DNA of 63,889 bases, filler included, from an uncultured Methanosarcinales archaeon (GTDB lineage: Archaea; Nanobdellota; Nanobdellia; Woesearchaeales; CAYXTQ01): assembly GCA_964608065.1 (NCBI GenBank). It is 5 parts of 4 records of this genome, joined end to end, with 100 filler letters (N's around TTAATTAATTAA, not from the genome) between each part and the next. Parts side by side here need not be neighbours in the genome. Positions count along the whole stretch, not along the records: positions 16,572 to 22,457 come from CAZSMA010000002.1; 4 more parts are not named here. One strand, 5' to 3'. A program made the position numbers and the translations under genes. This document shows positions 52 through 57,707 of this stretch, piece after piece. Numbering within the stretch: the first letter of the stretch is position 1; every line of letters starts with the position of its first letter. The notes under the pieces were generated by a model. It saw only the letters and a program-made list of their open reading frames with translations. It did not search any database and was not told the origin of the DNA.

Positions 52-822
52 ATGAATTCAAAAAATAATAAAATTATAATAAAATATGATATTGGTGAAA
101 ATATAATAATAGAAAATGGGGTTATGAGGGTAGCTAGGTCTGCACATATACTAAAAATTCCAAAAAGAGTAAATAAGGATCTAGCCTATTTAGCAGGCTA
201 TCATCTTGGAGATGGTTATTTGGAAGATGTTAACAAAACTTTGAACAGACAGGGAAGAGGAAGTTATGAGATTGACTATGCTGACAATAATATTAAACAA
301 CTTGAAATTATAAATAAAATAATAAAAGATGAGTTTAATCATAAATTAAGAATTTACAAAAGACCTAATGTCAATTTATGGATAGCTAGAACTGACTGTA
401 AAGTTTTGCACTGGTTTTTAAATAAAAAACTAGAATTACCAATTGGAAGAAGAAAAATTATCAAAATCCCACAATGGATTCTTGCTAACGAAAATTTCAT
501 AAGTAATTTTCTAAGCGGTTTTTTCGACGCTGAGAGTGATGTAAGTAAAACTACAAACTGTATTGTAAAAGGCAAAAGATATTATAAGATAAGAATCCAA
601 TTAACTCAAAAAGATAAAAATATACTTAATGAAATACAAAAAATACTCAAAAACAAATATGACATAAAATCTTGTATTTTTAAAAAACATAAACAAGAAG
701 CTTTTATTCTAAAAATTGATGCTAGAAAACCTATTAAAATATTTAAAGAAAAAATAAATTTTAGACACCCAAAAAAAAGAGAAAAACTTGAAATATTATG
801 TAAAGAATTTAACCTATTATAA
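52..822 (+). CDS. Free-standing double-motif LAGLIDADG homing endonuclease family protein
   Basis: Motifs LAYLAGYHLGDGYL and FLSGFFDAESDV about 110 aa apart; no intein splicing motifs; ATG at 52 (TTG at 43 possible); 3' end overlaps the leuS stop. Confidence 0.85.
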   Translation: MNSKNNKIIIKYDIGENIIIENGVMRVARSAHILKIPKRVNKDLAYLAGYHLGDGYLEDVNKTLNRQGRGSYEIDYADNNIKQLEIINKIIKDEFNHKLRIYKRPNVNLWIARTDCKVLHWFLNKKLELPIGRRKIIKIPQWILANENFISNFLSGFFDAESDVSKTTNCIVKGKRYYKIRIQLTQKDKNILNEIQKILKNKYDIKSCIFKKHKQEAFILKIDARKPIKIFKEKINFRHPKKREKLEILCKEFNLL

Positions 823-3466
823 TAGCAGGTTTATTAGGTAATGCCTTAGCTGCTTTTTGATCTTTAGAATCTTCTGCTTTTACAAATTCAACAGAAGCTT
901 TAAAATTTTTTTCAAAAACCTCTTTAGAATTTACTAAATTCTCAAACTCTGTTTTCTGGTCTAATACTGCTTTTGGCATTTTGGAAGGGTCCTTTAAGAA
1001 TATAGGAATCATTTTTGTGATATCTTTCCCATGTTTTCTTAACTTCTCTTCTTTCATCACAGCCTTAATCAACCCACTTATATCTCTTTGTTTCTCAATC
1101 TCTTTCTTTAAGATTTTAACAAACTTATATTTCCATTCTGCTGAAACAATCATTGTAATCTTTTTAGGATTCTTAACATTAATCAGTTCTAGAACTGCTT
1201 TAATATCAGCTATTGTTCTGTCAATTAACTCATCTACAGCATCTAGTTTAACATCAATCTTATTCTTATCATATTTAGGCCATTTCTCTAATGAAATAAA
1301 CTCTTTATTTCCTAATTTCTCCCACAATTCTTCTGATAAATGTGGAACAAAAGGTGCAAGCATAATAACCAAACTCTCAGCAACTTTTTTATTTATTTCA
1401 TCAAAATTACTCAAATAGTTTACTAACTCCATTAAAGATATTATCGCATTATTTAGTCTAAAGCTTTCAAAATTCTCTGTAACTTCTTTAATTGTTTTGT
1501 GCATCTTACTTATCTGTTTATTATCATCTTTATCTGTTCTTTTTTTCTCAGTTATCAGCCTATAAACCTTATTCAAGAATCTAAAGCTTCCTTCAACACC
1601 TTCATCACTCCATTCCATATCTTTACCAGGAGATGCAACAAAAAGAAGAAACAATCTTCCTGTATCAATACCATACTTTTTAGAAACTTCTTCCGGCAAA
1701 ACAACATTTCCTCTGCTTTTACTCATTACATGATTTTCTTTATGCAACATTCCCTGGTTAAACAACCTTAAAGCAGGTTCGTCAAAATCAATTAATCCTA
1801 AATCCTTGAAAAATTTAGTAAAAAATCTGAAATAAATCAAATGTCCTGTAGCATGCTCCTTTCCACCAATATACTGGTCTATAGGCAGCCAGTAATTCGC
1901 TTTTTCTTTTGAAAATATATTTTTACTATTCTTAGAGTCAGCATATCTCATAAAATACCAGCTGCTGTCAACAAAAGTATCCATTGTGTCTGTCTCTCTT
2001 TTTCCTTTTCCTCCGCATTTTGGACACTTAACATTAAAAAATTTCTTTGATGTCAGCATTGGATTTCCACTACCGCCAAATTTTACATCTTCTGGAAGCA
2101 AAACAGGTAAATCCTTTTCAGGAATAGGAACTCCTCCACATTTATCACAATAAATTATTGGTATAGGGCAACCCCAATATCTTTGTCTTGAAATTAACCA
2201 ATCCCTTAACTTATAATTAATAGTGCTTCCTCCTTTTTTTCTTTTCTCTAATTCTTTATTGATCTCTTTAATAGCCTCCTTGTTATTTGTTCCATTAAAT
2301 TTATCAGAATTAACCAGATTGCCATCATCAAGATAAGCTCTGCTCATCTTATCAGAATCCAAGTCAAACATAGGGCTACTAATAACAACCTTTATAGGGA
2401 TATCAAACTTCTTGGCAAACTCAAAATCTCTTTGGTCATGAGCAGGAACAGCCATAACAGCTCCAGCACCATAGCTGTATATTACAAAATTACCTATATA
2501 AACAGGAACTTCTTCATTAGTCATTGGATTTATAGCATACTTTCCAATAAACATTCCTTTTTTCTCTGCTTCTGCATTTGTCCTATCAATAAAGCTTTCT
2601 TTCTGAATCTCTTGCAAGAATTTTTCAAACTCTTTCTCATATTTAGTTCCTTTAACCCACCCTCTCACCAAATGATTTTCTGGAGCAAAAACCATGAATG
2701 TAACCCCATATATTGTATCAACCCTTGTTGTGAATATCGGAATTTCCTCATTAGTATCCTTCATCTTAAATTTTATAAGTGTTCCTTCACTCCTTCCAAT
2801 CCAGTTCCTCTGCATTATCTTTATATCTTCAGGCCATTCTTTTAATTTATCCAATCCTTTCAGCAACTTCTCACAATAATCTGTTATTTTGAAAAACCAT
2901 TGATCTAAGTCCTTAACTTCAACATCTGTATCAGTATGCCTCCAGCACTTTCCCTGAACAACCTGTTCATTAGCTAAAACTGTTTTACATTGAGGACACC
3001 AATTTACAAAACTCTTTTTCTTATAAGCTAGTCCTTTCTTATACAACTGTAAAAATATCCATTGATCCCATTTATAATATTCAGGAGTATGACATGCTAA
3101 CATCCTATTCCAATCATAACTCAACCCTAATTCCTTTTGCTGCTTTACAAAATTCTTGATTGCGTTCTCAGTAAATATTTTTGGATGTGATTTAGCCTTA
3201 ATAGCAGCATTCTCAGCTGGCAATCCGAAGCTATCATAACCCATAGGATAAAGAACATTAAATCCATTCATTCTTTTGTATCTTGCAAAACAGTCTCCTA
3301 TTGCATAATTCCTTGCATGACCCATATGCAATCCTGAAGCGCTTGGATAAGGGTACATTTCTAGAACATAGTATTTTTTTTTTTTTATATCTACTTCAAC
3401 CTCAAATACTTTCTTTTCTTCCCATTTTTTTTGCCATTTCTTGGCAATTTTGTTGAAATCAACCAT
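809..3466 (-). CDS. leuS: Leucyl-tRNA synthetase (bacterial-type core, archaeal-type C-terminus)
   Basis: LEMYPYPSASGLHMGH (HIGH), FTTRVDT editing domain, LRDWLISRQRYWGCPIP, DTMDTFVDSSWY, VMSKS, terminal ALPNKPAIII. Confidence 0.97.
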   Translation of the reverse strand: MVDFNKIAKKWQKKWEEKKVFEVEVDIKKKKYYVLEMYPYPSASGLHMGHARNYAIGDCFARYKRMNGFNVLYPMGYDSFGLPAENAAIKAKSHPKIFTENAIKNFVKQQKELGLSYDWNRMLACHTPEYYKWDQWIFLQLYKKGLAYKKKSFVNWCPQCKTVLANEQVVQGKCWRHTDTDVEVKDLDQWFFKITDYCEKLLKGLDKLKEWPEDIKIMQRNWIGRSEGTLIKFKMKDTNEEIPIFTTRVDTIYGVTFMVFAPENHLVRGWVKGTKYEKEFEKFLQEIQKESFIDRTNAEAEKKGMFIGKYAINPMTNEEVPVYIGNFVIYSYGAGAVMAVPAHDQRDFEFAKKFDIPIKVVISSPMFDLDSDKMSRAYLDDGNLVNSDKFNGTNNKEAIKEINKELEKRKKGGSTINYKLRDWLISRQRYWGCPIPIIYCDKCGGVPIPEKDLPVLLPEDVKFGGSGNPMLTSKKFFNVKCPKCGGKGKRETDTMDTFVDSSWYFMRYADSKNSKNIFSKEKANYWLPIDQYIGGKEHATGHLIYFRFFTKFFKDLGLIDFDEPALRLFNQGMLHKENHVMSKSRGNVVLPEEVSKKYGIDTGRLFLLFVASPGKDMEWSDEGVEGSFRFLNKVYRLITEKKRTDKDDNKQISKMHKTIKEVTENFESFRLNNAIISLMELVNYLSNFDEINKKVAESLVIMLAPFVPHLSEELWEKLGNKEFISLEKWPKYDKNKIDVKLDAVDELIDRTIADIKAVLELINVKNPKKITMIVSAEWKYKFVKILKKEIEKQRDISGLIKAVMKEEKLRKHGKDITKMIPIFLKDPSKMPKAVLDQKTEFENLVNSKEVFEKNFKASVEFVKAEDSKDQKAAKALPNKPAIIIG

Positions 3467-4633: not shown

Positions 4634-5779
4634 TTATTGTGAATGATAATTTATTCTTTCTATAATATGTTTTGGCGTTTTTAGTCTTCTTATATCCAAG
4701 TTATTCTCTTTCCTTACTCTCTGAACTTTTATAGCACTTACACCAACTTGTTCTGCTATTTGCCAAGCTGGAGCAGAAGGGTCTTTATGATGTAATTCAA
4801 TAATCTTTTTAATTATTTTTTGAGGTATTTTATTGTGAGGATGGGGCATCTTACTTTTGTAATCTTTTAATTCATCAAAATCACCATAAAGACTTAGCAT
4901 TCTTAGAAATTTATTGTATTTCTTAGGACTTAAACACATAAGTCTCTGTTTAAATAATTTAAGATTGTTTTCTTTTTTAGAGACAATTAATCCAACAAAA
5001 TTATCATAATTAGTTGAGCTTATTCCTAATCTATTTAAACAATCTTGGAATATTTTTCTTTCTTCAAATTTATTAGAACTTATATAAACCCTATAATGTT
5101 TAGATTGTTTATGAATCTCTACATTTGATTCTCCAGCTATTATTCCTCTCATAAAATTCCTTATTTCATCTTCTTCGTAACTTAATATATTTTGAGTCGT
5201 TTTTTTAACAAAATTCTTTATTATCTGACTTAGAATATTATTTTTACGTTCAATAATCAAAGTACCATAATCATAAAACCCCAATTCCTTATTCTCAGTA
5301 TTTTTAATATAACTAACTTTTTTAGGATAAGCTTGTTCTAGAGATAAACCTATTTTTTTAATCCAATGATTAACAACTTTACCCTCAACTTCTTTTTTAT
5401 AACTCTGATCCAAAGGTTCATTAATATTTATTTTTATGTACCATTTCCATCTATCTTTTGGAAAATAAAGTTCTTTATCAAACCAATTAATTACTTTGTT
5501 GATTAATTGGTGTTCGTGATTACAAAAATTAATACAGCCATTTTGTGTTTTGCCCATCTCTGCTTGTAGCAATCCTAAAACTTCAAATGTTTCATTTGTT
5601 TTTGAAATAAAACGCGGGATAATGTAACAATATTCCCTAAAACCTGCGTGTTCAGAAGGACGAAAGTAATAGCAAGTTAAAGATTCATCATCTACTTTTA
5701 CTTTCAACTCATATTCATATTTATTCTTCCCACTAACAATATTTTTTGGGAGATACTTTATTAAATCAATTTTTTCCAT
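4634..5779 (-). CDS. LAGLIDADG-like protein with C-terminal helix-turn-helix
   Basis: Divergent motifs FEVLGLLQAEMGK and FMRGIIAGESNV; C-terminal IIELHHKDPSAPAWQIAEQVGVSAIKVQRVRK is HTH-like. Confidence 0.75.
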   Translation of the reverse strand: MEKIDLIKYLPKNIVSGKNKYEYELKVKVDDESLTCYYFRPSEHAGFREYCYIIPRFISKTNETFEVLGLLQAEMGKTQNGCINFCNHEHQLINKVINWFDKELYFPKDRWKWYIKININEPLDQSYKKEVEGKVVNHWIKKIGLSLEQAYPKKVSYIKNTENKELGFYDYGTLIIERKNNILSQIIKNFVKKTTQNILSYEEDEIRNFMRGIIAGESNVEIHKQSKHYRVYISSNKFEERKIFQDCLNRLGISSTNYDNFVGLIVSKKENNLKLFKQRLMCLSPKKYNKFLRMLSLYGDFDELKDYKSKMPHPHNKIPQKIIKKIIELHHKDPSAPAWQIAEQVGVSAIKVQRVRKENNLDIRRLKTPKHIIERINYHSQ

Positions 5780-13896: not shown

Positions 13897-14253
13897 AGGC
13901 AGGGTAAAAATAAGCCACCTTCTGTCAGATGTTCATGTGAAATCATCTGTCTTAGTATTTAACTAAGCCTTCATAGCGAAGTTGCACAAACCAGGGCTCA
14001 CCGTTTCATCCTTTCACTTGAAAAATTGGATTTTTCAAGTTCCCGGAAATTTGATTTCCCAGGACATAAAAAACGTCAGGAGGTTAACTCAGAACTGTTG
14101 CCAGTTCCTTCACATCCATCATCCTAAATTATGGTGGTATCGTTTCTGAGTGGTTGCCATCCCTTACAAAATCTCCCTTCCGAGAGTGGTCTTTCATAGT
14201 GGGTGGACTTTCCTCAGTTGTTTCCAACCGATAACTAAGTTCTTACCCTACCT
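13897..14253 (-). ncRNA. rnpB: RNase P RNA
   Basis: Minus strand GAGGAAAGUCC, CAGAAAC, GAUGAAACGG and ACAGAAGGUGGCUUA conserved regions; P1 AGGUAGGGUAA/UUACCCUGCCU; TATA box ~25 nt upstream. Confidence 0.92.
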
Positions 14254-16471: not shown

Positions 16472-16571
16472 NNNNNNNNNNNNNNNNNNNNNNNNNNNNN
16501 NNNNNNNNNNNNNNNTTAATTAATTAANNNNNNNNNNNNNNNNNNNNNNNNNNNNNNNNNNNNNNNNNNNN
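16472..16571. other. Artificial contig linker
   Basis: N44-TTAATTAATTAA-N44 (stops in all six frames). Confidence 0.95.
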
Positions 16572-18148: not shown

Positions 18149-19249
18149 TTAGAAATTAACTTCATATCTTAGAATTGCAGCAACTTTACCAATGTCTCTT
18201 AGTTGGACTCCTTCTCTTGTTTCAATTGAGATTATTATTACATTTGTCTTCATCTTTTCTGCTTCTTTTTCAAATTCCTCTATTGTTTCATCATCCAATG
18301 TTTCTGACAATAATAAAGTGTCTACAGAACCCATCTTTAAATTCTTCATGACTTCGTCTTTTCCATAGCTGGCTTGTGCTGGTTTTTTTGCTAATGTTTC
18401 AAAAAATTTAGCCATTATCTGTTTTTCTGCAGTAATTTCTTCTTTTGCAAGAACATCATCGCATTTTTCAACTAATTCCTGCAGGCCAAATTCACCAGTA
18501 TAAGAAATGTCTTTTACAGCTATTATTTTATTTTTTATTTCTGTTGGAATAAAGCCTTCATTTATGAAATCATATTTGCTTGGGCCTGGGCCTCCAACAA
18601 TGATTCCTTTTAATTCCTTTTTACCTAAGAATTGTTCTTTTACATACTCTGCTACTTTTTTGTAATGGTCTTTTATTGCTCCTAAACGTAATCTAGCGAA
18701 ACGAGGAGCTGATTGACCTCCTGCACGCTGCTTACCTGGAATATGAGAGTGTGTTTTTAGCAACGGAATTATTGTTTTTCCTTTTAATATTGCAATATCA
18801 GCATCTCTTCTGTCTACAACAATAAGGCCATAGATTTCTTTTGTTTCCATCATGTCTTCCAGTAAATCCACTACAAATGCTTTATCGCATCTATAGATGC
18901 GGGTTTTTAGTGGAACTGGGGGTTCAATAGAAAATACTTGATAGTCCTGTTGGCCTTCTCTTTCAGCAACATTTCCAGAGAAAACAGCCAATCCATGATC
19001 TGGTGTTTTTTTAAAAAGCTTTAAGTGCTGAGTCATTTTTTCTAATGCTGCTGTTACATTGTTTCTAGTAGAAGTTGATTTTATGTTAGTTGCAGTACCT
19101 TTTTCCTGGAATAAATGGTTTATGATTTTATTAAGATCATAACCTTGGGGAATATATACTGTGACCAGTTCTGTATGGGTTCTTTTATATTGAATAAGCT
19201 GTTTTACAAATTTTTTCAGTTCATATTTCTGTTTTTCACTTAAAGCCAT
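18149..19249 (-). CDS. prf1: Peptide chain release factor aRF1
   Basis: GTATNIKS, YRCD, AGGQSAPRF. Confidence 0.97.
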   Translation of the reverse strand: MALSEKQKYELKKFVKQLIQYKRTHTELVTVYIPQGYDLNKIINHLFQEKGTATNIKSTSTRNNVTAALEKMTQHLKLFKKTPDHGLAVFSGNVAEREGQQDYQVFSIEPPVPLKTRIYRCDKAFVVDLLEDMMETKEIYGLIVVDRRDADIAILKGKTIIPLLKTHSHIPGKQRAGGQSAPRFARLRLGAIKDHYKKVAEYVKEQFLGKKELKGIIVGGPGPSKYDFINEGFIPTEIKNKIIAVKDISYTGEFGLQELVEKCDDVLAKEEITAEKQIMAKFFETLAKKPAQASYGKDEVMKNLKMGSVDTLLLSETLDDETIEEFEKEAEKMKTNVIIISIETREGVQLRDIGKVAAILRYEVNF

Positions 19250-19360
19250 TTTATTTATAGATATCTATATAGTGTTTATAAAAGTTTTGTATATATAGCA
19301 AAGCAAAAGCTTTATAAATCAAGTACTATTTCTAAACACAAATTAAGCTACCTATAGAAT

Positions 19361-19546
19361 GGGATTATATAATGTATTTATATAACATTAAGCTATGGGG
19401 TAGCTTGGCCTTATCCTTTCTGGTTTGGGGCCAGATGACCCCGGTTCGAAACGACTGGTTACGCGCGGTCGACACGCAAAGTGCAACATAAAGTTGCACG
19501 AGCTCGCTTGACGCTCGCAACTATCGAGAAAGTCCGGGTAGCCCCA
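19361..19546 (+). tRNA. tRNA-Pro (TGG) with two introns (positions 3/4 and 59/60)
   Basis: Exons 19361-19363, 19392-19450 and 19533-19546 give a 76-nt cloverleaf: GGGGCTA/TAGCCCC acceptor, TCTGG-TT-TGG-GG-CCAGA, CCCGG-TTCGAAT-CCGGG; both junction pairs form bulge-helix-bulge motifs. Confidence 0.88.
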
Positions 19547-19582
19547 TATTTAAATAAAATAAAAAAAAACTATGATTTAAAA

Positions 19583-19903
19583 ATGGCAGAAGAAGTAAAA
19601 TTAGGATCAATAAAAAGGTTTGGAGCTAGATATGGAAGGAAAGTAAAGCATAAACTAGCTGAGATTGAAGCTTTACGTAGAAAAAAATACAAATGTCCAT
19701 ATTGTACACAACCTAGGGTAAAAAGAATTAGTGCAGGAATCTGGGAATGTAATAAGTGTGGATCAAAATTTACAAGTAAAGCTTATATGGTTCAAAAGAA
19801 AGTAGTATTAAAAGAAGAAGTTAAGAAAACTGTTAAAGTGGAAGGTAAGAAAGAAGTTGAAAAAGTAAAAAAAATAGAAGAGGAAGAAGTTAAAAAATGG
19901 TAA
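19583..19903 (+). CDS. rpl37ae: 50S ribosomal protein L37Ae
   Basis: RFGARYG, CPYC...RISAGIWECNKC; K/E-rich tail; start moved to 19583. Confidence 0.95.
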   Translation: MAEEVKLGSIKRFGARYGRKVKHKLAEIEALRRKKYKCPYCTQPRVKRISAGIWECNKCGSKFTSKAYMVQKKVVLKEEVKKTVKVEGKKEVEKVKKIEEEEVKKW

Positions 19904-20034
19904 ACTATAAATGTTTTTTTTGCAATAAGAAAGTATCAAAAGAGATGCTGGGTAAAAGGATAAGGTGTCCTTATTGCGGTGGAAAAATACTTTTTAAGCC
20001 AAGAAGTACTGTAACAAAATTCAAAGCAAGATGA
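19897..20034 (+). CDS. rpoP: RNA polymerase subunit P (Rpo12), not in ORF track
   Basis: MVNYKCFFC...RIRCPYCGGKILFKPR...KAR. Confidence 0.93.
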   Translation: MVNYKCFFCNKKVSKEMLGKRIRCPYCGGKILFKPRSTVTKFKAR

Positions 20035-21484: not shown

Positions 21485-21744
21485 TCGGAAATATACCTCT
21501 GGTTTCTAACCAGTGGATGAAATCCACTATCCTAAACCTATTGTGCTATATTTCCGAGTGTTTGAAATGCAAGGCATTTCTAACAAACCAAAAATTCACT
21601 ATGTGAATTTTTCAGTTCATGCTCAAAAACCACTCAATAATCATTGTACATGTAGCAACATCCTTGAAAATCTAAGATTTTCGGGACACCGAAAATGCAA
21701 AGCATTTTCCAGTGTGCCACTCATCTATTGTGGGTGGTTTTTGA
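21485..21744. repeat. Nested array of short palindromes
   Basis: At least six hairpins plus two long closing stems (see findings). Confidence 0.75.
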
Positions 21745-21785
21745 CAAACTTAATAAACTCTGAAGTTTTTTTTTTTTTAATACTA

Positions 21786-22457
21786 ATGACTGGAAAAAAA
21801 GGATTTAAGAAAGGCGGAAAACAGGGGAAAAAAGAAGTTACAGAAAGAAAGAAATTAACTGCAAATGAAAAGATTAAGGAATTACAGGAAGATATAAGCA
21901 AGACTAAATACAACAAACGAACACAAGGCGCTATTGGAGTTATGAAGGCCAAGCTAGCCAATCTTAAAGATAGGGCTGTTCAAAGATCTTCAATTGGAAA
22001 GGGGAAAGGTGATGACAGGTTTACTGTCAGAAAAACCGGAGACGGTACTGTTGTGATATTAGGTTTTCCTTCTGTAGGTAAATCAACTTTGCTTAATAAA
22101 ATTACTAACGCAAAATCTGATATAGCTGCATATTCTTTTACTACACTTAAAGCTGTTCCAGGACTTATGGAATACTGTTTTGCAAAAATCCAGATAATTG
22201 ATGTTCCGGGCATAGTATATGGGGCAGCTTCTGGCAGAGGACGAGGGAAAGAGGTCCTTGGAATGCTTAGGACTGCTGATTTAATTTTAATCTTAGTTGA
22301 TGCTATGAACCCTGAACATTACCCTGCTATATTAAAAGAAATATGGGAAACCTCTATTAGGATAAACGAAGAAAAACCTGATGTTAAGATTATTAAAAAG
22401 GAAAAAGGGGGGGTAAATATAAGTGAAACTGTAAAACTAACAAAAATAAATCATAAA
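21786..22457 (+). CDS. DRG family (OBG-like) GTPase, 3' partial
   Basis: KTKYNKRT, GFPSVGKST, YSFTTL, DVPG, GRGRG; cut by the contig end. Confidence 0.93.
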
Positions 22458-22557
22458 NNNNNNNNNNNNNNNNNNNNNNNNNNNNNNNNNNNNNNNNNNN
22501 NTTAATTAATTAANNNNNNNNNNNNNNNNNNNNNNNNNNNNNNNNNNNNNNNNNNNN
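22458..22557. other. Artificial contig linker
   Basis: N44-TTAATTAATTAA-N44. Confidence 0.95.
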
Positions 22558-31790: not shown

Positions 31791-31890
31791 NNNNNNNNNN
31801 NNNNNNNNNNNNNNNNNNNNNNNNNNNNNNNNNNTTAATTAATTAANNNNNNNNNNNNNNNNNNNNNNNNNNNNNNNNNNNNNNNNNNNN
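31791..31890. other. Artificial contig linker
   Basis: N44-TTAATTAATTAA-N44. Confidence 0.95.
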
Positions 31891-40208: not shown

Positions 40209-40281
40209 AATCCTTGGTTTATACTGGTCTTATATATACTTTATCAAAAGTTTTAAATAAACACTAATAACATTGAATCAT

Positions 40282-40890
40282 ATGTTTTCAGATATTGTTT
40301 TTCCAAAAGATAATGAGAAAAAATTAATTAACATGGCAATTAGATTAGGTTATTCTACATTATATCTTGTTTATGATTCTAAAGAAGATTTTGCTAAAAT
40401 AAAAATAAAATTAGAGGAACTAAAAGACAAAGAAATAAAACTCAAAATAGGAGTTAAAACTAATATTAAAAACATAAATAAATTCAGAAAATTTGATATT
40501 ACATTAATAGAAGCATCAGATAAAAGCAGATATATAATAGAAAATTCTAAGCCAAATTTAATCTATAACCTAGAATTAATTGGAAGAAAAGACTTTATGC
40601 ACCATATGAACTCTGGGCTTAACCAAGTTCTGTGTAAATTAGCTAATCAAAACAAGGTGGCTATTGGAATAAACTTTAATAATCTTCTTAAAGAAACAAA
40701 TCTAAGAAAAGACATTATTATCGGAAGAACCAAACAAAACATAAAACTTTGCAGAAAGTACAAAGTTAGATTCATTACAGGAAGCTTTGCTTCATCTGCT
40801 TTTGAAATGCGCAACCCACAAGATTTACGTAGTTTTTTAACAGTTATTGGAATGCATCCAGAAGAAGCAAAGCAAAGCATAATTTATTAA
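40282..40890 (+). CDS. rnp3: RNase P protein Rpp30
   Basis: AIRLGY, NSGLNQVLCKLA, IKLCRKYKV, FEMRNPQDL. Confidence 0.88.
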   Translation: MFSDIVFPKDNEKKLINMAIRLGYSTLYLVYDSKEDFAKIKIKLEELKDKEIKLKIGVKTNIKNINKFRKFDITLIEASDKSRYIIENSKPNLIYNLELIGRKDFMHHMNSGLNQVLCKLANQNKVAIGINFNNLLKETNLRKDIIIGRTKQNIKLCRKYKVRFITGSFASSAFEMRNPQDLRSFLTVIGMHPEEAKQSIIY

Positions 40891-40962: not shown

Positions 40963-43900
40963 ATGAAAAAACAAAAAATATTTTTCTTAGCGCTCNNNNN
41001 NNNNNTTAGCACTCATAATAATCTTTACCACATCATTTTTCTCTATCTATTCGATTAGTGTTACATCTTCAAGTGGAAACTGTGAAGATCCTGATGGGTG
41101 TGTTTCAGATGTAAAACTTGAATTATCTTTAAATCCATGTAAGACAGGATGGGGGAAATCTACAGGAATGACTTACTTCCAAATGTGTTATACCCAATCA
41201 AAAGGGGCAGGAGCATATATAGAAGATTTGAAATATATGGCTAAAGCAGGCGACACCAGCTGTACGTCTGCGAATTGTATAACTGGTTATGAAATCTCAG
41301 GACAAGCCGTGTCTGGAAACATATGCTACTGGCTTTGTAAAAAAATTGGAGAACCAAAGATTAATGATATCAAATTTAAGTACAAAGAAATAAAGACTCT
41401 TCAAGATACAAAGCCATTATGTGATGATATTTATAATTTGAATTTAGGTAGTCAGTGGGACCTAGACACTCTTTTGTATACATTACTATGCGCAAAACCA
41501 GTAACACTACCACTTACATGCACAACCAACGGAGGCAAATGTCAAATTGATGCATGCGAATCAGGAAAAGAAGTAGGTGGAACCTGTGCCGACAATAAAA
41601 ACTGCTGTGAAATACCACCACCACCACCAAATCAATGCACAGAATCAGGAAAAGTGTGTGTTCCAACAGCTAGTTGCTCTCAGGATAAAAGATTAAACAC
41701 TCCTGGTTGCGGACAAGGAAATACATGCTGCGAGCCATCTAATCCTTGCCAAGACTTAGGAGGAACATGCAAATCTTCTTGTTCAAATGAGCTTGAGCTT
41801 CCTCTTGAAGCAGATTATTTTTGCAGACAAGATAACAACAAATGCTGTAAACCTTACAGCGAGATAGACTTCATAAGACCTTATAAATATTCATCTATAC
41901 TAAACCCACAAATAATAATCAGGACTGCTCAGGAAGCTACAACCTGCACAGCAACTTTAGAAAAAGTTAATGATAATGGAGATAGGATAAGATTTATTAC
42001 TCCTCACCCAATTTTGAATAAACAAGCAGACAACAACCTACAGCATAAAAGAGAGGATACTAGTGCTTTAGAAAAAGGAAATTATAAATTAAGTGTAACA
42101 TGCAACAAAATAACTACAAGGAAAAAATGCTGTACTGCTTCTGGAACAACAGGAACAAACTGCCAGACTGCTGGTGGAGATTGTGTAGTAACAACAGCGT
42201 TATGCCCTACAGGAAAAACAAATGTTTTATCAACAGCAGCAGACTCATGCCACGCAACTTCACGTATAAATGCAGAATATTTTTTCACAATAAACACATC
42301 ATACCAAGGAGAATATTGTGAAGGTAATATTGCAAAATGCCAACCAAACCACATATTTGATGGTTTTAGGGAAGTTGGGCTTCCACAGCAGCATTATGAA
42401 CCTGCTAACAGGGATATACAAGGTTATAATCTAGTCTGTGTAGATGCAGGCAACCAACAAACAAACTTAGACGGATATTGCAGAGCAACATGTGCAAATA
42501 CAATCTGCCCTTACGAACCTCGTTTACCAAATAATCCAGAATCAGTACACTTAGCTTACACTATCGGCTGCTTCAAACCATACATTGAACCAAGATGCAT
42601 CAATTACAAAGGTTTTACAGGAAACGAAGAAGTAAATTCTATGGAAAGCTGTGCAGACCCTCCAAGCCCATACCTTCATGATGCTCCGGGCTTTACCCTT
42701 TGCAAAAAAGGATACAACCCAGCAACAGGTTCAACTGTATACTTCAACCCTCACGGAATGGATTGGAACTCAGAAACAGGAGCTGAAAATTTGTGTATGT
42801 GGACATTTTTCAGAAGAGAAGCATGGGCCATGTGCGATCAGGAAGGAGGTTCATGTGATTGTTATTCAGGCAATGATGTAAACCGTGTTGGTTGCAAATG
42901 CTATCAACACACAGAATGCAAAAACAATATATGTGAATTAGTGGATGGTAAAGGGGCAGACCAGTGCTCTGCTGTTGGTTCAGCTTGTGAACCACCATCA
43001 TGCGGAACAGCAGCAGAATGTATAGTAAGCTGTGATAAAAACCTATACTGTGAAACAGAACAAGACTGTGCAATATCTTCTAAAAAATTCTGGTATGGAG
43101 ACACTACAAAATCATATTCATTCACACATGATAAAGAAGAAAAATTAAACTGTACTGTTACTGTTGAAACTGCTTGTTTTGGAGGTAACAATATAGAGAC
43201 CAATGAAAAATTAAGAGTAGCAATAAATGGAGAATTTGTCGGAATTACAGAAGATGATTACTGCAACACCCAGGGAACATGCTCTGAAGATGGCCCACAA
43301 ACCACAACATTTACAGCACAAGCACAAATAAAAAAACAAAACACAATAAAAATTGAGCATGTTGAAAATAGTGTTAGCCTAACATCACTATATATGCAAT
43401 GCCATGGAGAAAAACAATACACATGGGATAGGTCAGAATCTGGATATTGTAGATCACCTTCCCAATGTTTAGTCAACCCATACTCAGATAATGAAGATAG
43501 AAGTGAAGTAACATATATAGACCTTGATATCCCGACTTATAATGATATAAAATGCATAGATTCAGGCCAGTTTATAGGAGATCATTATTGTGACAACGGA
43601 ATTTGGACTACAAGAACAAAAGCAATAGCATTGCAACTATTACAATCAGCAGAAAACTACAATCCAGATGATTATGTTTTATTCTGTGATAATTATCTAA
43701 ACACATTAAACTATTATGATTATGATATTGTAACAACCTATGGAACCAACAAAGCCAGAGACTATTTATCTAATAATTGCGAGGTATTAAACACACCAGT
43801 TTCATGCATCAACAAAGTCTGTGTCCTAAAATACAAAACACCTGATGATGATAATTACAAAGTTGCTGTTGGAACTTCTTTAAATCATGACATGACACAA

Positions 43901-47016: not shown

Positions 47017-47166
47017 ATGAAAGAGCGTATCACAATAACTATTGACAAAAAACTTCTTAAGTGGTTAGATGAGAATGTAGATAAGAGAATATTTGCAAAC
47101 AGATCTCATGGTTTTGAATTTTTAATACAAAAAAAAATAGAAGAGGAAAATGGGAAAAAGAAGTAA
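47017..47166 (+). CDS. Ribbon-helix-helix DNA-binding protein (49 aa, not in ORF track)
   Basis: MKERITITIDKKLLKWLDENVDKRIFANRSHGFEFLI. Confidence 0.88.
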   Translation: MKERITITIDKKLLKWLDENVDKRIFANRSHGFEFLIQKKIEEENGKKK

Positions 47167-50100
47167 AAAAATAATACTAGCACTATTTACATTAGTATTA
47201 ACTATTTTAATAGCTTCTGTAGTTAATGCTGTTTGCTGTACAGAACCCGGAGATAATTATTGTCAGGAAACAGATCAAGCAACCTGCGCTGACTCATACG
47301 AATCAGTAAGTTGTGATAGTTTACAATCAATATGTACTGATGTAGGTTGTTGTAAAGCAACTTGTGAATCATATGTAACACGTGCATATTGCAATATAGC
47401 AGATGCATTTGTAGCAGACAAAGACTGCAGTGATGAATCAATAACAGAATGTCAGAAAGGCTGCTGTGTTCAGATTGACTCTGATAACACACCTCATGAC
47501 TGTTACGATGAACAGGATCATAAAGGAATATATGAAAAAGATTGTGTAGCAGACCCATTATATGCTAATAAAATATTTTATCCAGGAGAGTTCGGAAACA
47601 ATTGCACTGACCTATGTGAAGCAGGAACACTACAAAAAGGAACTATCAAAGGATTTGTGTATTATGGAATTCCAAAACAATCTGCTGATGATGCTAAAGT
47701 AATTATTGGAGGAGATCTAAAAAATTGGATATACAATGATAAGAACACTGGCTTTGAATTTACTGAACAATCTTATGGAAGCCACTCAATTACTGCTTAC
47801 TATGCAGGTTATAAACCAAAAACAGAAAACATAGTTTTATCCCAAGCAATTCTTGAAATTGAAATACATCTTACTGAAACAACAGACAAAGGCCATGTAT
47901 CAGGGCTAGTCAGGGAAAAAAACACTGGAAAACTAATTAAAAATGCTGTTGTCTCTTATTCCAATGGACAGGATTCAACAGATGATGATGCTTTTTTCTT
48001 CATAGAAAATATTGATGAAGGACCAATAACATTAACAGCAACAGCTACAGGCTACAACAGCGAAAGCAAACCAATAACTATTACAGCAGGAGAACTGACA
48101 ACAACAAACTTTGATTTAACACCAGCAACAACAGAAGAAACAGGCTGGCTTACAGGCTATGTAAAAGATACAACTTCAGGAGATTATCTTAATGATGTTG
48201 TAATAGACGTATTCAAAGATAATATAATAGAAGGTACAGGAATCTCAGAAACAGATTTCACAATACCTCCAAAAAAAGGATTCTACCAAATACTTGAATT
48301 ACCAGAAGGAACTCTTAAAGTAAGAGCATCAAAACAAGGTTATTACTCTTCTGCAGATATTCCTATCCAGATAAACAAAAACACAGGAACTTCTTTAGAA
48401 GACATAGAATTAGAACCATTACCTGCAGAATGCTTAGCAGACTTACCTTCCCCATATTTAGAGCTTTCTAATATTAAAGGAACAAAAAGTATAAAAATAA
48501 AATGGAATCAAAAATGCATACAGGAATTAGGGGTAACAGATTACAAGCTTTATAGAAATAATATACTAATCAAAACCTTCAAAGAAGAAGATAAGATATA
48601 TGAGTATGAGGATGATGGAAGCAGCATTGGAAAATTAAGATGGGACACAACATACACATACAAACTTATTGCACTAGCTTCAAACCAACAAAGCATTGCA
48701 ATAAGAACTATCAACACAGGAAACAAGTTCTGTGAAAACAAATTAGATGAAGAATTCTGCTTAGATAATAATTTAGGCAACATAATTCCATTGACAGTAA
48801 GAGCAAAATGCAATAATCAGAATATACTTTCTGTTGTAGAAGGCTGCGCAGATGAACAAATATGCAGGCAACTGAATGACTTGACATATTGTATAGATCC
48901 AGACGATTGCCAAAACCTAGGGATAGATTATAACCAAGGATATTTCCCAAACATCCTGGGAATGTTTTACTACAGCGCATATGCTGAAATAACATGCCTT
49001 CAAAATCAAAATAACCAGCCAAGATTCTGTTATATGGATTATTACAAAGCAGCAGGCCCGTTCACAACAGTAGATAGATGCCTTAACTGCAAGCAGGATG
49101 GAAACTGCTTTGATTACCAGTCAAAACAAGCATGCCAACAGGACAATTGCGGTTATAGTGATTGTGAATGGTATAACAATTACGCATTTGCACCATTAGG
49201 AAGAGGCTTCTGTTATGAAAAAAGCTATACTGGAACAGACTACTGCAGTTTATGCAGCTCTAATAACAACCTATTCTCCAATGTTTATTGTACAAAAGAA
49301 CTTTGCAGCAAACTAGGCTCCTGCTTTGCTACAGGAGACAGCTGTGAATCATGCACCCAGGATAGCACATGCGAATTATATACTACCAGGGAAGCATGTG
49401 TTGGAAATTCTCAGGGCTTTGAAGCAGAAATATGCAATCCTGACGAAGAATTCAAATACAGCAAAGACACTTGCGGATTAAAAAGATGCAAATGGCTAAA
49501 CAATCAATGCATTAAAGACGGAAATGATGACAATATAGCAGATTGCAAAGAAAATGATATATTATGCCAGATAGACACAACACCCCCAACAACATTTATT
49601 AGCTCAAAACCAGAAGCTATAATCTCTGAAGAAACTGAAATCAGATTCATAACTGACGGAACATCCACTTATTATTGCATTGATGAGTTTAATTGCTGCC
49701 CAGACAAGATTGTAAACAACAATAATCTTGTACTACCTAATGAAGATTTCCTCTTAAAAGATATAAAAGCAAACCATACGCTTTATTTCTACTCTATTGA
49801 TACTTATAATAACACAGAAACCATCCAAAAAGAAATAATCTATGTTAATACAAAAAAACCAAAATTCACATTCACAACATTAGTAGAAGACAACACAGAA
49901 TCTGATACAACATCAGATTTGACAGTAACACTAAATGTCGAAGACAAATATTATTGTGAAGACGACTTAAGTTTTGGATATGGAAATACAGTTGATTCTA
50001 AAATAAGTCAGGATGTTGCAACAGACCTAAGTGTAACATACTCTGCACTAAAAGACGGCTATTATTATTATACTGTAACTTGTAGAGACGAGCTTGGAAA

Positions 50101-53100
50101 CATAAATGAAACATCTGCATGGTTATTAATTGACAGAATCAAAGGCATAACCTATGCAGGTCCTAATAATAATGCTGTAGTAAAAAACCCAGTTAATATT
50201 ATCATAAGAACAACAACTAAAAATTACTGCAGATACAAGGATCAAAACAATAACTGGCAGTTTATGGGGATCAACAAAGGCCAGGGAATATTCGATCCAA
50301 CTTCAGGAGAATTCAAATACGAAGCAACACTAGCTACTCTAATCAGCGGAACACACAATATAGATGTCAGTTGCCACAAAGATCATTTATTTACACAACA
50401 TTTTGATTCTATTAACTTAGCATTCACAGTAGATAACATACCCCCTACAACTACACCAACCTTTGAAACAGTAACAGGCTCTTATGTAGATTTAATAAGC
50501 ACATTCAGCAGCAGCCAACTAACAATAAGATTAGAATGCGCAGATGATCCAACAACAAACTTTGGATGCAAAGAAACAAAATACTGCTATGACTCAACAG
50601 ATTGCACACCTGACATAACACTTCCTGTAAATGGAATATTTACTATTGAAGACATCAATAATACTATCCTATGTTATTACTCTGTTGATAAGGGAGGTAA
50701 TGAAGAGCAGACAACATGCATTAGCCTTACTGTTGACAGCACACCTCCTGGAATCAGCCTTTATTTAGAAGGAAGCCAGACTACTGGATCAGATAATATC
50801 ATAATATCTTATGAACCCAAACCCATTATTGTAGTAGATGCAACAGAAACAATAACTATAGTTGAAAAACATCTGAGCAGCGGAAGCAGCGGAACTCCAG
50901 AACTTGAACAGATAGATAACATAGAAAATAAAATATTAAAACTTCAGCCAAAAGAAAACCTTGAAAAAGGAACATACACTGCAACTATAAAAGTTGTAGA
51001 CGGCATTGCAGGAATAGGCAACGAAAAAACCGCAACATTAACCTTCAGAGTAGAACCATCACCAATAGACATCACTTATATTGAACCAAAACACGGAGTT
51101 TCCTCCAAAGATACATTTAATCTCACACTTCTGATAAAACAGCAAAACGAATGCAGATACACAATAAATCCTGATGGCTATGGTTATGTTTTTCATACTA
51201 TGATTCCATTAAACAAAAGTGAAACTAACTTAGAGATATATTACAAACAAAATTTCAATGAAATAACTAACAATGATTACCGTACTCTTTACATAGCCTG
51301 CAACAACAGCTTAGGAGAAATACAAAGAGGCTTCAAATATCTGCGAGTTGACAAACTAAAGCCAAGCTTCGATAAATTGGAAGCAGTACCGCACACAATA
51401 TCTGACGAGCCAGTAGAAACAACACTTGTAGTAGATACAAATAAAGAAACAATTTGTAAATATAGCACTACTCCAAAAGATTATGAAGCTATGGAAGGAA
51501 AACTAAGCGGTTATGATAATAATGATTTTAATATATCTCACAGAAAACCTCTTGAGTTTTCAACAGCTAAGCAGGACTACAAATATTATGTAATATGCGA
51601 AGCAATGAATGGATTAAAAACAGATGGAGGAGAAGTAACAATAAAAGTTGACTTAACACTTCCTTTGGCAATAACTGACCAGACCTCTGATTACTTCAGC
51701 CAGGGTTCTGTTGACCTAGAGATTTATACCAATAAGTGGTCCCAATGCAGCTATGGAACAAGTTCCAGCAATATAACTTTATTCTATACAGATGAAGGCT
51801 CAATGAACAAGAACCACAAACAGACATTATCATTAAATGAAGGATCTTATAAATATTATATCAAATGTGTTAAAGGCTCAGAAACAGCCACTAAAGAAAT
51901 AGAATTCTCAATAGACACATCCCCTCCAGACATGCTTTATGTAAGAGAAATTGGAACTGCAGATTATCCTGATAAATCACCTTACAAGAACAGATTAAAA
52001 GGAGAATGGAAAGCAGAAGACAACCAAAGCGGAATAGATTATTACAATGTACTTCTTTACTTAGATAAATATAGTGAAGACGAACTTATTGATTCATTCA
52101 CAACATCAGATACAAATGGAGAAGTCACAGGACTCGAGCTTAATGATTCTGAAGAATATTATTTTGAAGTAAGTGCTGTTAATAAAGTTGGATTATGGAG
52201 CGACAACGAAACAGGAGACGGCATCATAATAGACACAAGCCTATCAACATTAGATTGCAATAATAGGGAAAAAGATAATGATGAAACAGACATAGACTGC
52301 GGAGGCTCATGCTCAAAAGGATGCCCTGATAATTCAAGCTGCAAAGAGAATTCTGACTGTAAAAACGGATTCTGTCATAACGATATTTGCAAAGAATCTA
52401 CATGTTATGATGGCTTAAAAGGCCCAAAAGAATCAGACAAGGATTGTGGAGGAACATGCAGCAAAAAATGTGAGGTGGATGAAAAATGCGGAGATGACGA
52501 CGACTGTAAATCAGGAAGCTGCGATATAAGCAAAGGAATTTGTACAGAAGGAGGCAAATGTTATAATAATAAATTAGATCCAGGAGAGACTGATGAAGAC
52601 TGTGGAGGCATTTGTTTAGTTAAATGTGATAATAGTGATACTTGTGAAGAAGCTTATGATTGCGAAAGCAATAATTGTATAGAGAACATCTGTGTTTCTG
52701 CAAACAAATGCAGCAATAACAAACTAGACCCAGGAGAAACAGACATAGACTGCGGAGGCTCATGCAGCCAATGTAGAAATGGAAGATCTTGCTTGACAGA
52801 TGATGACTGCTCATCAGGAAACTGCAACCTAGACATATGTGAAGAACAGCTTGATGATACAGACAATGATGGTTTGAGTGATACATGGGAAGATAGATAT
52901 AATGAAGGAGATCTTGATTCAGAATTATATGATACTGATGGAAACGAAAAATCTGATGGAGAAGAAGACTTTGATAAAGACGGATTAATAAACACAGTTG
53001 AAGAAAAATATAGGACAGACCCTCACAAAAGAGACACAGATGGAGACGGCTATACAGACAAAGAAGAAATAGACAAAGGAACAGACCCTCTGGATAAAGA

Positions 53101-53992
53101 TGATTATCCAGAATCTGATATGCTATTCATACTATTCTTATTAGTTGCTTTAATTTTACTGGGTGTTGGAGGCTACTTTGGATATAGAAAATATAAAGAT
53201 ATGAAAGAAAGCAAGATAGAGCTTCCACCAATAAAAGAAGAGCAAATCTTACCAAAACCAAAACCTCTTGCAGGAAAACCAGAACAAAAAACCACTACAA
53301 AGAAAACATTCCCTCCAAGAACAAGAACAGAATTAGATAAAAAAATAGAAGAAAAAAGAAAGAAAAGAGAAAAACTGCTTAGCAAATTCGGTTTTGGAGA
53401 AACCCTGATAAAAAAAGAATTTGAGGTAAAAGAAGAAGAAAAACCGACAGAAACATTTGAAGAAGGGCCTAAGATTGGTTGGGTTGAATTAAAAACTCCT
53501 GGAAGAACCAAAACAATATCATCTGAAAAAACAATTTTTGAAAAACTACCTAAACTAAAACCAGGTGAAGATGTATTTATAGCATTATCAAAAATGATAG
53601 GAGCAGAAATCAAACAAGAAACAATAACAGAATTCAAAGATGTAGCTCAAAAAAAGAAACTAACAAAAGAAGAGCTCCTAACAATAATAAACAAATTCTC
53701 TAAACAGAAAAAGATAGATGAAGAATCGTTACACAACGTATTGGCTTCAATACTTGAAGAGAAAAAAAACATCCCTAAAAAAGAAAATAAAGCAAAACTA
53801 CCAACAATTATTAAGAAAGAGGTTAAAACAATACCTGTAGTTTCAACACAAACTGCAAACATTTATCATAAAAAAGGATGTATAACTATAAAGAAAAAAA
53901 AAAATCTTAAAACTTATAAAAGCAAAAAAGAAGCACAAGACAAAAAACTAAAACCTTGCAGTGTCTGTTTCCCAACTAAAGGAAGAAAATGA
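47150..53992 (+). CDS. Giant membrane-anchored surface protein (2280 aa)
   Basis: Signal peptide; carboxypeptidase-regulatory-like repeats; Fn3/Ig modules (D.TPP); four E(T/S)DxDCGG Cys repeats; DTDxDG Ca-binding repeats; TM helix; cytoplasmic tail ending YH..GC...PCSVC. Confidence 0.88.
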   Translation: MGKRSKKIILALFTLVLTILIASVVNAVCCTEPGDNYCQETDQATCADSYESVSCDSLQSICTDVGCCKATCESYVTRAYCNIADAFVADKDCSDESITECQKGCCVQIDSDNTPHDCYDEQDHKGIYEKDCVADPLYANKIFYPGEFGNNCTDLCEAGTLQKGTIKGFVYYGIPKQSADDAKVIIGGDLKNWIYNDKNTGFEFTEQSYGSHSITAYYAGYKPKTENIVLSQAILEIEIHLTETTDKGHVSGLVREKNTGKLIKNAVVSYSNGQDSTDDDAFFFIENIDEGPITLTATATGYNSESKPITITAGELTTTNFDLTPATTEETGWLTGYVKDTTSGDYLNDVVIDVFKDNIIEGTGISETDFTIPPKKGFYQILELPEGTLKVRASKQGYYSSADIPIQINKNTGTSLEDIELEPLPAECLADLPSPYLELSNIKGTKSIKIKWNQKCIQELGVTDYKLYRNNILIKTFKEEDKIYEYEDDGSSIGKLRWDTTYTYKLIALASNQQSIAIRTINTGNKFCENKLDEEFCLDNNLGNIIPLTVRAKCNNQNILSVVEGCADEQICRQLNDLTYCIDPDDCQNLGIDYNQGYFPNILGMFYYSAYAEITCLQNQNNQPRFCYMDYYKAAGPFTTVDRCLNCKQDGNCFDYQSKQACQQDNCGYSDCEWYNNYAFAPLGRGFCYEKSYTGTDYCSLCSSNNNLFSNVYCTKELCSKLGSCFATGDSCESCTQDSTCELYTTREACVGNSQGFEAEICNPDEEFKYSKDTCGLKRCKWLNNQCIKDGNDDNIADCKENDILCQIDTTPPTTFISSKPEAIISEETEIRFITDGTSTYYCIDEFNCCPDKIVNNNNLVLPNEDFLLKDIKANHTLYFYSIDTYNNTETIQKEIIYVNTKKPKFTFTTLVEDNTESDTTSDLTVTLNVEDKYYCEDDLSFGYGNTVDSKISQDVATDLSVTYSALKDGYYYYTVTCRDELGNINETSAWLLIDRIKGITYAGPNNNAVVKNPVNIIIRTTTKNYCRYKDQNNNWQFMGINKGQGIFDPTSGEFKYEATLATLISGTHNIDVSCHKDHLFTQHFDSINLAFTVDNIPPTTTPTFETVTGSYVDLISTFSSSQLTIRLECADDPTTNFGCKETKYCYDSTDCTPDITLPVNGIFTIEDINNTILCYYSVDKGGNEEQTTCISLTVDSTPPGISLYLEGSQTTGSDNIIISYEPKPIIVVDATETITIVEKHLSSGSSGTPELEQIDNIENKILKLQPKENLEKGTYTATIKVVDGIAGIGNEKTATLTFRVEPSPIDITYIEPKHGVSSKDTFNLTLLIKQQNECRYTINPDGYGYVFHTMIPLNKSETNLEIYYKQNFNEITNNDYRTLYIACNNSLGEIQRGFKYLRVDKLKPSFDKLEAVPHTISDEPVETTLVVDTNKETICKYSTTPKDYEAMEGKLSGYDNNDFNISHRKPLEFSTAKQDYKYYVICEAMNGLKTDGGEVTIKVDLTLPLAITDQTSDYFSQGSVDLEIYTNKWSQCSYGTSSSNITLFYTDEGSMNKNHKQTLSLNEGSYKYYIKCVKGSETATKEIEFSIDTSPPDMLYVREIGTADYPDKSPYKNRLKGEWKAEDNQSGIDYYNVLLYLDKYSEDELIDSFTTSDTNGEVTGLELNDSEEYYFEVSAVNKVGLWSDNETGDGIIIDTSLSTLDCNNREKDNDETDIDCGGSCSKGCPDNSSCKENSDCKNGFCHNDICKESTCYDGLKGPKESDKDCGGTCSKKCEVDEKCGDDDDCKSGSCDISKGICTEGGKCYNNKLDPGETDEDCGGICLVKCDNSDTCEEAYDCESNNCIENICVSANKCSNNKLDPGETDIDCGGSCSQCRNGRSCLTDDDCSSGNCNLDICEEQLDDTDNDGLSDTWEDRYNEGDLDSELYDTDGNEKSDGEEDFDKDGLINTVEEKYRTDPHKRDTDGDGYTDKEEIDKGTDPLDKDDYPESDMLFILFLLVALILLGVGGYFGYRKYKDMKESKIELPPIKEEQILPKPKPLAGKPEQKTTTKKTFPPRTRTELDKKIEEKRKKREKLLSKFGFGETLIKKEFEVKEEEKPTETFEEGPKIGWVELKTPGRTKTISSEKTIFEKLPKLKPGEDVFIALSKMIGAEIKQETITEFKDVAQKKKLTKEELLTIINKFSKQKKIDEESLHNVLASILEEKKNIPKKENKAKLPTIIKKEVKTIPVVSTQTANIYHKKGCITIKKKKNLKTYKSKKEAQDKKLKPCSVCFPTKGRK

Positions 53993-54477
53993 GTTCTAGA
54001 AAAAGCCAAATTATAGGACAAGTTTTTATATACATTTTAGCAATAATTATCTTTTCAGGAATATTGCTTTACGGGTATAAAATAATAAAAGGTTTTAGCA
54101 ATAAAGCAGATGACGTTACATTCATTCAGCTGACCACAGATCTTAAAACATCTGTAAAAAAAATAAAATCAGATTATGGGACTGTAATAAAGAAAGAACT
54201 CAGGATTCCAGGAAAATACAGTACTATTTGTTTTATTGATCTAGACTATCTTGCAGAGATTTCGTTACAAGATGAACATCCTGCAGTATACAACAGCTGG
54301 AAGGACAAGACAAAAGAGAACATGTTTCTAATAACAGCTACAGAAGACATACAGCCTTATCATATAGAGGGAATAAAGATTTCAAGCAAATATAATTGTA
54401 TGGCTGTTAACCAAGGAAAAATACTATTGAGATTAGAGGGTAAAGGTGAATATGTGGAACTATCAGAATGGGAATAA
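53989..54477 (+). CDS. Pilin-like protein (class III signal)
   Basis: RKS|QIIGQVFIYILAIII. Confidence 0.8.
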   Translation: MSSRKSQIIGQVFIYILAIIIFSGILLYGYKIIKGFSNKADDVTFIQLTTDLKTSVKKIKSDYGTVIKKELRIPGKYSTICFIDLDYLAEISLQDEHPAVYNSWKDKTKENMFLITATEDIQPYHIEGIKISSKYNCMAVNQGKILLRLEGKGEYVELSEWE

Positions 54478-55613: not shown

Positions 55614-55618
55614 ATAAA

Positions 55619-56614: not shown

Positions 56615-56692
56615 ATAACTTAAAACCATAGAAAGTTTTAAATAGGGATTAACTAATAAATGATATAAGATAAAAAAAAAGAGGCGTTTATA

Positions 56693-57239
<547 letters not shown>

Positions 57240-57278
57240 CCAAAAAACTTAAATATCCATTAATTTCTTTAATTTAAT

Positions 57279-57533: not shown

Positions 57534-57572
57534 ATCGAAAGACTTAAATATTTAAATCCTTAATATTAGGAT

Positions 57573-57707
57573 ATGTTTCGTAAACTAAAAAAAAGAGGAG
57601 CGCCAGTTCTCAAAACATTAATTGTAACAATCATAGTCATGTTATGTATTTTGATTCTCTTTATTTTACTTTTTTATAAAGTCCCCCAAGCAATCTTATT
57701 TTCATAA
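57573..57707 (+). CDS. Minimal pilin-like peptide (44 aa, not in ORF track)
   Basis: MFRKLKKRG|APVLKTLIVTIIVMLCILILFILLF. Confidence 0.65.
   Translation: MFRKLKKRGAPVLKTLIVTIIVMLCILILFILLFYKVPQAILFS

Follow-up and report, generated by a model that had tools for sequence, protein, structure and literature searches.

Introns between positions 3 and 4 of archaeal tRNAs have been described, 'in an extreme case', for certain Thermoproteales (Sugahara et al. 2008, as cited in Yoshihisa 2014, PMC4090602). Like the intron of our locus, these introns lie three bases into the acceptor stem, belong to the protein-spliced bulge-helix-bulge (BHB) class and sit in genes in which additional introns are common. 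A 3/4 intron, in the Thermoproteales as elsewhere, must take bases of its central helix from the 5' leader. A contribution from outside the mature tRNA is also a feature of split tRNAs (Nanoarchaeum equitans, Caldivirga), in which leader and trailer sequences build the BHB motif and hold the pieces for ligation, and of permuted tRNAs (Cyanidioschyzon, Thermofilum pendens), in which outside sequence likewise pairs to form the BHB; in both kinds end-processing enzymes make the mature ends afterwards. A second non-canonical position, 59/60 in the T-loop, is reported for pre-tRNA-Cys and pre-tRNA-Pro of ARMAN-2 (Fujishima et al. 2011, PMC3239211).

The splicing enzymes differ in what they accept, alpha4 and alpha'2 endonucleases being described as requiring a strict hBHBh' motif, and alpha4 enzymes with an L3 loop are reported in DPANN lineages, where they accompany more tRNA gene disruption. 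Incomplete tRNA sets in DPANN genomes have led one published analysis to suspect disrupted genes that have escaped identification, and tRNAscan-SE 2.0 is described as lengthening its candidates by 60 nt so that introns close to the ends are not missed. The accessible text of a 2026 preprint on Asgard tRNA introns gives few acceptor-stem cases and does not mention the leader. In the literature on tRNA introns of DPANN archaea and Woesearchaeota we found no description of a 3/4 intron in tRNA-Pro; the label '3/4' cannot be searched for, so this does not establish its absence from print.

Here we describe a tRNA-Pro(UGG) gene in a 63,889-nt stretch of archaeal DNA (the whole stretch analysed, filler included, hereafter the window). 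We consider it probable (roughly 0.8) that this is a working gene of a Woesearchaeota-type (DPANN) archaeon, cut by two endonuclease-type introns, the first of which has a splice motif built with the 5' leader, and matured by splicing followed by RNase P. Since the 3/4 position and leader-built motifs are already known, the feature is not a new kind of system but a further 3/4 BHB intron, conserved in a DPANN lineage new to this kind, with a strict motif and a long antisense leader. Compared with the Thermoproteales cases, the host is of Woesearchaeota type rather than a crenarchaeon; in our locus the motif is strict, with a leader that forms 13 antisense pairs. The leader resembles that of split tRNAs in building the BHB, but the likeness to split and permuted genes is limited to this point: the normal exon order on one strand rules out either arrangement, the transcript is contiguous, and the leader pairs with the tRNA body (positions 5-17a) instead of with the trailer of another transcript.

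A proline tRNA gene with two introns

We confirmed that the tRNA-Pro is interrupted three bases past the start of the gene, as had been proposed. Three exons follow one another in normal order on one strand within 186 nt. Exon 1 (19361..19363, +) is the GGG of tRNA positions 1-3; exon 2 (19392..19450, +) comprises positions 4-59, with the anticodon TGG at 19426-19428; and exon 3 (19533..19546, +) comprises positions 60-73, ending in the discriminator A (19546), with CCA not encoded. They are separated by intron 1 (19364..19391, +), 28 nt long at position 3/4, and by intron 2 (19451..19532, +), 82 nt long with 54% G+C at position 59/60 in the T-loop, which was absent from the original prediction. 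The insertion point of intron 1 lies between tRNA positions 3 and 4, exon 2 beginning at G4, and the AA at the end of the intron leaves no ambiguity about the junction.

When both introns were removed in silico, ARAGORN returned a 76-nt tRNA-Pro(UGG) with 7/7 acceptor pairs and a 7-nt T-loop, whereas with intron 1 alone removed it found nothing. Excision of 19364-19391 therefore does restore the acceptor stem, as proposed, but a full tRNA is recovered only with intron 2 out as well. The 5' exon is indeed 3 nt long, the in-silico cut leaving GGG followed directly by GCTA. On the unspliced locus ARAGORN made no tRNA call, reporting only a tRNA-His in the whole window, and the Rfam tRNA model had no match there at its gathering threshold; where a pseudogene label from standard scans had been expected, these two thus call nothing at all. 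Permissive Rfam scans (19000-20000 with E up to 10; the whole window with E up to 1) found neither a tRNA at the locus nor an Rfam family matching one of the introns, and the three weak matches that the first of them gave were all far under their thresholds. A scan of both strands for T-arm hairpins, which genes with interrupted T-loops would escape, found no other tRNA gene in the window than the tRNA-His.

In the mature tRNA-Pro two bases, not one, separate the D-stem from the anticodon stem (19417-19418), and the variable loop has 4 nt (19436-19439). Both peculiarities recur in one of the related loci described below (L003) and therefore appear to be features of the lineage.

A splice motif predicted to span leader and tRNA

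Around intron 1, the region 19343-19406 presents its elements in the order h-H-B-h' on the 5' strand and h'-H-B-h on the 3' strand. The outer helix h joins a leader strand (19345..19357, +), antisense to tRNA positions 5-17a, to an exon strand (19393..19406, +) consisting of those positions, with G19398 bulged; it comprises 13 pairs, one of them T.G. The central helix has AATG as its 5' strand (19358..19361, +), the final base being G1 of the tRNA itself, and CATT as its 3' strand (19386..19389, +), giving 4 bp. It is flanked by a 5' bulge, GG/A (19362..19364, +), with a predicted cut at 19363/19364, and a 3' bulge, AA/G (19390..19392, +), with a predicted cut at 19391/19392. The inner helix h' is the intron hairpin (19365..19385, +), in which 19365-19372 pairs with 19378-19385 (8 pairs) around a 5-nt loop. 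Thus the GGG 28 nt upstream, the 28-nt insert and every helix and bulge of the originally drawn BHB are present as described.

With a 4-bp central helix, opposed 3-nt bulges and outer helices on both sides, the window motif is a strict hBHBh', and it matches the canonical archaeal BHB geometry as defined in section 4 of Yoshihisa 2014 (PMC4090602). Cuts at 19363/19364 and 19391/19392 join GGG to GCTA and yield a 7-bp acceptor stem, and theirs is the only junction that restores it. Together with the relatives and compensatory changes reported below, this geometry supports a BHB intron at position 3/4 whose motif would be made from the 5' leader.

Folding of 19340-19410 with RNAfold recovered the outer and inner helices with a minimum free energy (MFE) of -22.9 kcal/mol (z = -3.8), which none of 200 shuffles equalled. 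The minimum shows the centre of the motif as two 2x2 internal loops, not as 3-nt bulges; the explicit BHB structure has -19.5 kcal/mol, 3.4 kcal/mol above the MFE. As a direct test of chance, the 92 nt upstream of exon 2 were shuffled 200,000 times, requiring the strict motif with a GGG exon. No shuffle contained it at h of at least 4 bp and h' of at least 3 bp (0/200,000), and a single one (1/200,000) contained the relaxed form with at least 2 bp in each helix. A chance origin of the motif is excluded.

An 8-nt word, TTAAGCTA, stands where the leader helix begins (19343-19350) and again 45 nt further on, across the boundary of intron 1 and exon 2 (19388-19395). As tRNA positions 4-7 are complementary to positions 13-16, either copy of TTAAGCTA can pair with 19401-19406, giving a competing local hairpin.

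Conservation in related genomes

Relatives were sought in one scan of genome representatives, using as pattern a 6-base leader word 28-58 nt before a tRNA-Pro D-arm; because a match needed a given D-arm as well as the distal leader word, the scan is silent on how common the architecture is. It returned five loci, the window's own genome not being among them, and three of these (L002, L003 and L004) have the window's architecture. The remaining two are chance matches, L001 being a bacterial locus with no tRNA and L005 a tRNA-Pro of Thermoplasmata that has no interruption at its 5' end.

The tRNA-Pro loci are orthologous. The gene order tRNA-Pro, L37Ae, prefoldin beta, MscS is common to the window, L003 and L004, with L37Ae 57-60% identical among these loci; L002 had no match to any of the three proteins, no locus had a match to the aRF1 of the window, and a topoisomerase I gene lies upstream of the tRNA in all three relatives. 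The number of introns varies: L003 has the 3/4 intron only, L002 has in addition a canonical 37/38 intron, and L004 has both a canonical and a 59/60 intron besides. After splicing in silico, all four genes are tRNA-Pro(UGG) with 7/7 acceptor pairs, and the mature sequences are identical at 67-71 of 75 positions.

Intron 1 itself differs in sequence and length (28 nt in the window and 37, 31 and 32 nt in L002, L003 and L004, respectively), and yet each splice site is embedded in ten bases, AGAATGGGAT and ACATTAAGCT, that all four sequences share without a change. The central helix, including its AATG strand, and both bulges show no variation among the four. On an alignment of these sequences (A1), the structure is paired in 95% of 100 cells, compared with 27-41% after displacement of the partners by 1-3 columns. 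Of the 25 pairs on A1, six change on both sides, a number reached by 1 of 500 shuffles. Five of these are among the eight pairs of the intron hairpin across the four genomes; the sixth is a pair between leader and exon, T:A7 in the window and C:G7 in L004, where the 3' acceptor strand has changed too, keeping the 7:66 pair. Covariation of the leader, which had been put forward as a check, is accordingly present in one leader/exon pair, and the same architecture recurs in three other genomes with compensatory changes.

Leader, promoter and predicted order of processing

A TATA-like octamer, TTTATAAA (19311..19318, +), lies 26 nt before the leader helix and is a putative archaeal promoter of the pre-tRNA; in L002, L003 and L004 the distance from a similar octamer to the helix is 20-23 nt. 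Usual archaeal promoter spacing would place the transcription start within a few bases of the leader helix. The 5' leader would accordingly occupy 19341..19360 (+), its start being approximate, as it is taken from the position of the TATA-like octamer, and its end lying one base before G1; the RNase P site would fall after 19360.

It could be that the intron is spliced as just outlined but that only a minimal motif matters (central helix, bulges, intron hairpin and 2-3 leader pairs) and that the distal part, 19345-19352 with 19399-19406, is dispensable for cleavage, in which case this stretch could delay cloverleaf folding or RNase P access, or have no role. The leader base opposite A7 is mismatched in L002 and L003, so that only two pairs stand directly beside the 3' bulge before mismatches break the helix, and in L004 a 5-nt unpaired insert separates its proximal and distal parts. 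Furthermore, the search pattern itself demanded six of the eight distal leader pairs, which makes their invariance in the relatives circular. However, the two leader bases outside the required word, AA facing TT, are kept in 4/4 sequences; the predicted transcription start coincides with the start of the distal helix in 4/4 sequences; and an exon of 3 nt needs something that holds it for ligation. We regard a dispensable distal helix as unlikely, although it is the least improbable of the alternatives that we considered.

The full leader-built motif carries a consequence for the order of events. Nucleotides upstream of G1 take part in the whole of the outer helix and in three of the four pairs of the central helix, and because leader bases -16 to -1 build the outer and central helices, endonuclease cleavage would have to precede RNase P. 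This order, splicing first and RNase P second, follows directly from the structural model, in agreement with the original prediction. In partition-function folding, the leader helix has a pairing probability of 0.93-0.98 in the full precursor, which drops to 0.001 once the introns are removed in silico, G1-C72 then pairing with a probability of 0.74; the modelled change is consistent with the leader being freed for RNase P. The predicted MFE structure of the mature sequence is not a cloverleaf, thermodynamic folding being unreliable for tRNAs.

We propose the following pathway. The primary transcript would start about 20 nt before G1, and leader bases -16 to -4 would pair with tRNA positions 5-17a. 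Bases -3 to +1 would pair with the last intron bases ahead of the 3' bulge, and the intron hairpin would complete a strict hBHBh'. EndA would then cut after G3 (19363/19364) and before G4 (19391/19392), freeing the 28-nt intron, while the long leader/exon helix would keep the fragment of leader plus GGG on the tRNA body for joining by an RtcB-type ligase; in holding this fragment, the helix would double as a tether, in the manner of the leaders and trailers of split tRNAs, besides belonging to the recognition motif. Exon joining would allow the G/C-rich acceptor stem of 7 bp to form and displace the leader, and RNase P would then cut after 19360. The T-loop intron would be removed independently, through a BHB with the T-stem as its outer helix. 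The window has genes for p30, a protein subunit of RNase P (40273-40890, +), and for an RNase P RNA of archaeal type (13902-14248, -; 120.8 bits), so that the enzyme needed for leader removal is present. No Pfam match to the splicing endonuclease EndA or the ligase RtcB was found among the 56 different window ORFs scanned.

The gene could also be colinear, with a transcript that begins at about 19389 and carries TAA opposite CCC, to be repaired by trimming of these three bases and 3'-to-5' templated addition of GGG by a Thg1-like enzyme. Archaeal Thg1-like proteins have repair activity, and the colinear reading does look like a tRNA whose first three bases are mismatched, which is how ARAGORN draws the window gene when only intron 2 is removed; at L003 (3045-3121), too, it calls a tRNA-Pro that begins on the last three intron bases. 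Yet 5' repair leaves unexplained why GGG, central helix and bulges stand invariant 28-37 nt upstream in four genomes, why the intervening hairpin carries compensatory changes, and why a promoter-like box is set for a start some 50 nt upstream of 19392. With the three bases present in the DNA 28 nt upstream, as part of a splice motif that is conserved, classification among the 5'-edited or repaired tRNAs is ruled out, and an absence of 3/4 splicing is in our view highly improbable. Least probable of all is a decaying or non-functional tRNA-Pro whose BHB-like fold is a by-product of the palindromic GCTA/TAGC words in the tRNA, since, although standard detectors make no call and exon positions 4-7 and 13-16 are self-complementary, so that some hairpin potential is built in, the exons are far more alike than the neighbouring L37Ae proteins (67-71/75 as against 57-60% identity), the acceptor stems are perfect in all four genes with a compensated A7-to-G7 change, and the motif appeared in none of the 200,000 shuffles. 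All three alternatives are much less likely than the pathway proposed above.

Implications

For annotation, the gene escapes both ARAGORN and the tRNA model of Rfam, and its relatives are called with a wrong 5' end, as at L003, or a wrong identity, as at L002 (3051-3157), where ARAGORN calls a tRNA-Ser(tga) with an intron; at L004 it finds nothing at the tRNA-Pro gene. Were a tRNA-Pro(UGG) overlooked in this way, a gap in decoding would be falsely deduced. For mechanism, the gene offers a natural case in which the splice motif cannot outlast 5' maturation, so that the order of two processing steps would be fixed, and it is a simple substrate for studying how a 3-nt exon is held for ligation. 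For evolution, an acceptor-stem intron with an invariant core has been kept across genomes as divergent as their L37Ae sequences suggest, and the 3/4 position extends beyond the Thermoproteales.

A broader interpretation can be offered tentatively, and we think it possible but doubtful in full: the acceptor-stem intron of tRNA-Pro(UGG) in Woesearchaeota would be an old, fixed feature, the antisense leader a guide and tether, and splicing an obligatory gate before RNase P, the whole forming a cis counterpart of split-tRNA trans-splicing and possibly descending from it. If so, the leader would force a non-cloverleaf fold and offer a strict motif within reach of even an alpha4-type endonuclease of narrow specificity. 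It would also hold the 3-nt exon for ligation and let go only after joining, so that the processing order would be written into the gene.

The T-loop intron

At intron 2 the T-loop is broken after TTCGAA (19445-19450) and resumes with T, followed by CCGGG and the 3' acceptor strand. Its BHB is slightly relaxed, with 3/4 central pairs, the T-stem serving as outer helix and TTCG as a central strand. Among five variants of the boundaries submitted to ARAGORN, 19451-19532 was the only one that gave a 7-nt T-loop. The window intron and those described for ARMAN-2 are alike in their 59/60 position, in using the T-stem as outer helix and in having a tRNA-Pro host; the window intron differs in being 82 nt long, in its 54% G+C within a genome of about 31% G+C and in its one central mismatch, and the ARMAN-2 enzyme is of the epsilon2 type. 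The 59/60 intron of L004 is 96 nt long with 38% G+C, and its boundary words are those of the window.

Intron 2 folds into a long irregular hairpin (-27.2 kcal/mol), its G+C content standing at 54% against about 31% for the window, and inspection by eye for a C/D-box RNA found no C-box-like word in it. A 140-aa ORF from a GTG at 19481 spans intron 2 and exon 3 (19481-19582); because homology to L37Ae begins at the ATG at 19583, the upstream part of this ORF is a spurious extension.

Lineage and gene neighbourhood

The window has about 31% G+C and encodes ribosomal proteins, an A-type ATPase, MCM and TBP. The aRF1 gene adjoins the tRNA, and among the best 120 relatives listed for its product all organism names are Candidatus Woesearchaeota or Nanoarchaeota, at 72-75% identity. 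Named relatives of the topoisomerase I of L004 are likewise Woesearchaeota or Nanoarchaeota, except SM23-78 itself (75% identity) and one 'archaeon'. Judged by their nearest named protein relatives, the window and the related loci appear to belong to the Woesearchaeota (DPANN). The record titles of the relatives read Methanosarcinales in two cases (L002 and L004) and Euryarchaeota in one. Given these protein relatives and the synteny of L004 with the Woesearchaeota-like window, the Methanosarcinales titles look like mislabels.

Elsewhere in the window, two free-standing ORFs with LAGLIDADG-like domains (43-822, +, E 1.2e-11; 4634-5779, -, E 6.8e-5) flank a gene for a bacterial-type leucyl-tRNA synthetase at 809-3466. 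Paired runs of 44 Ns, 12 bases apart, occur at 16472-16571, 22458-22557, 31791-31890 and 61671-61770, together with a run of 10 Ns at 40996-41005; one of the pairs truncates the ORF of a DRG-type GTPase at 21513-22505, and the runs look like scaffold gaps or masking. A 2280-aa ORF (47150-53992, +) with CarboxypepD_reg, Ig-like and TSP3 repeats is followed by ORFs without a Pfam match (53989-60540), and the region 47150-60540 is probably a surface protein cluster.
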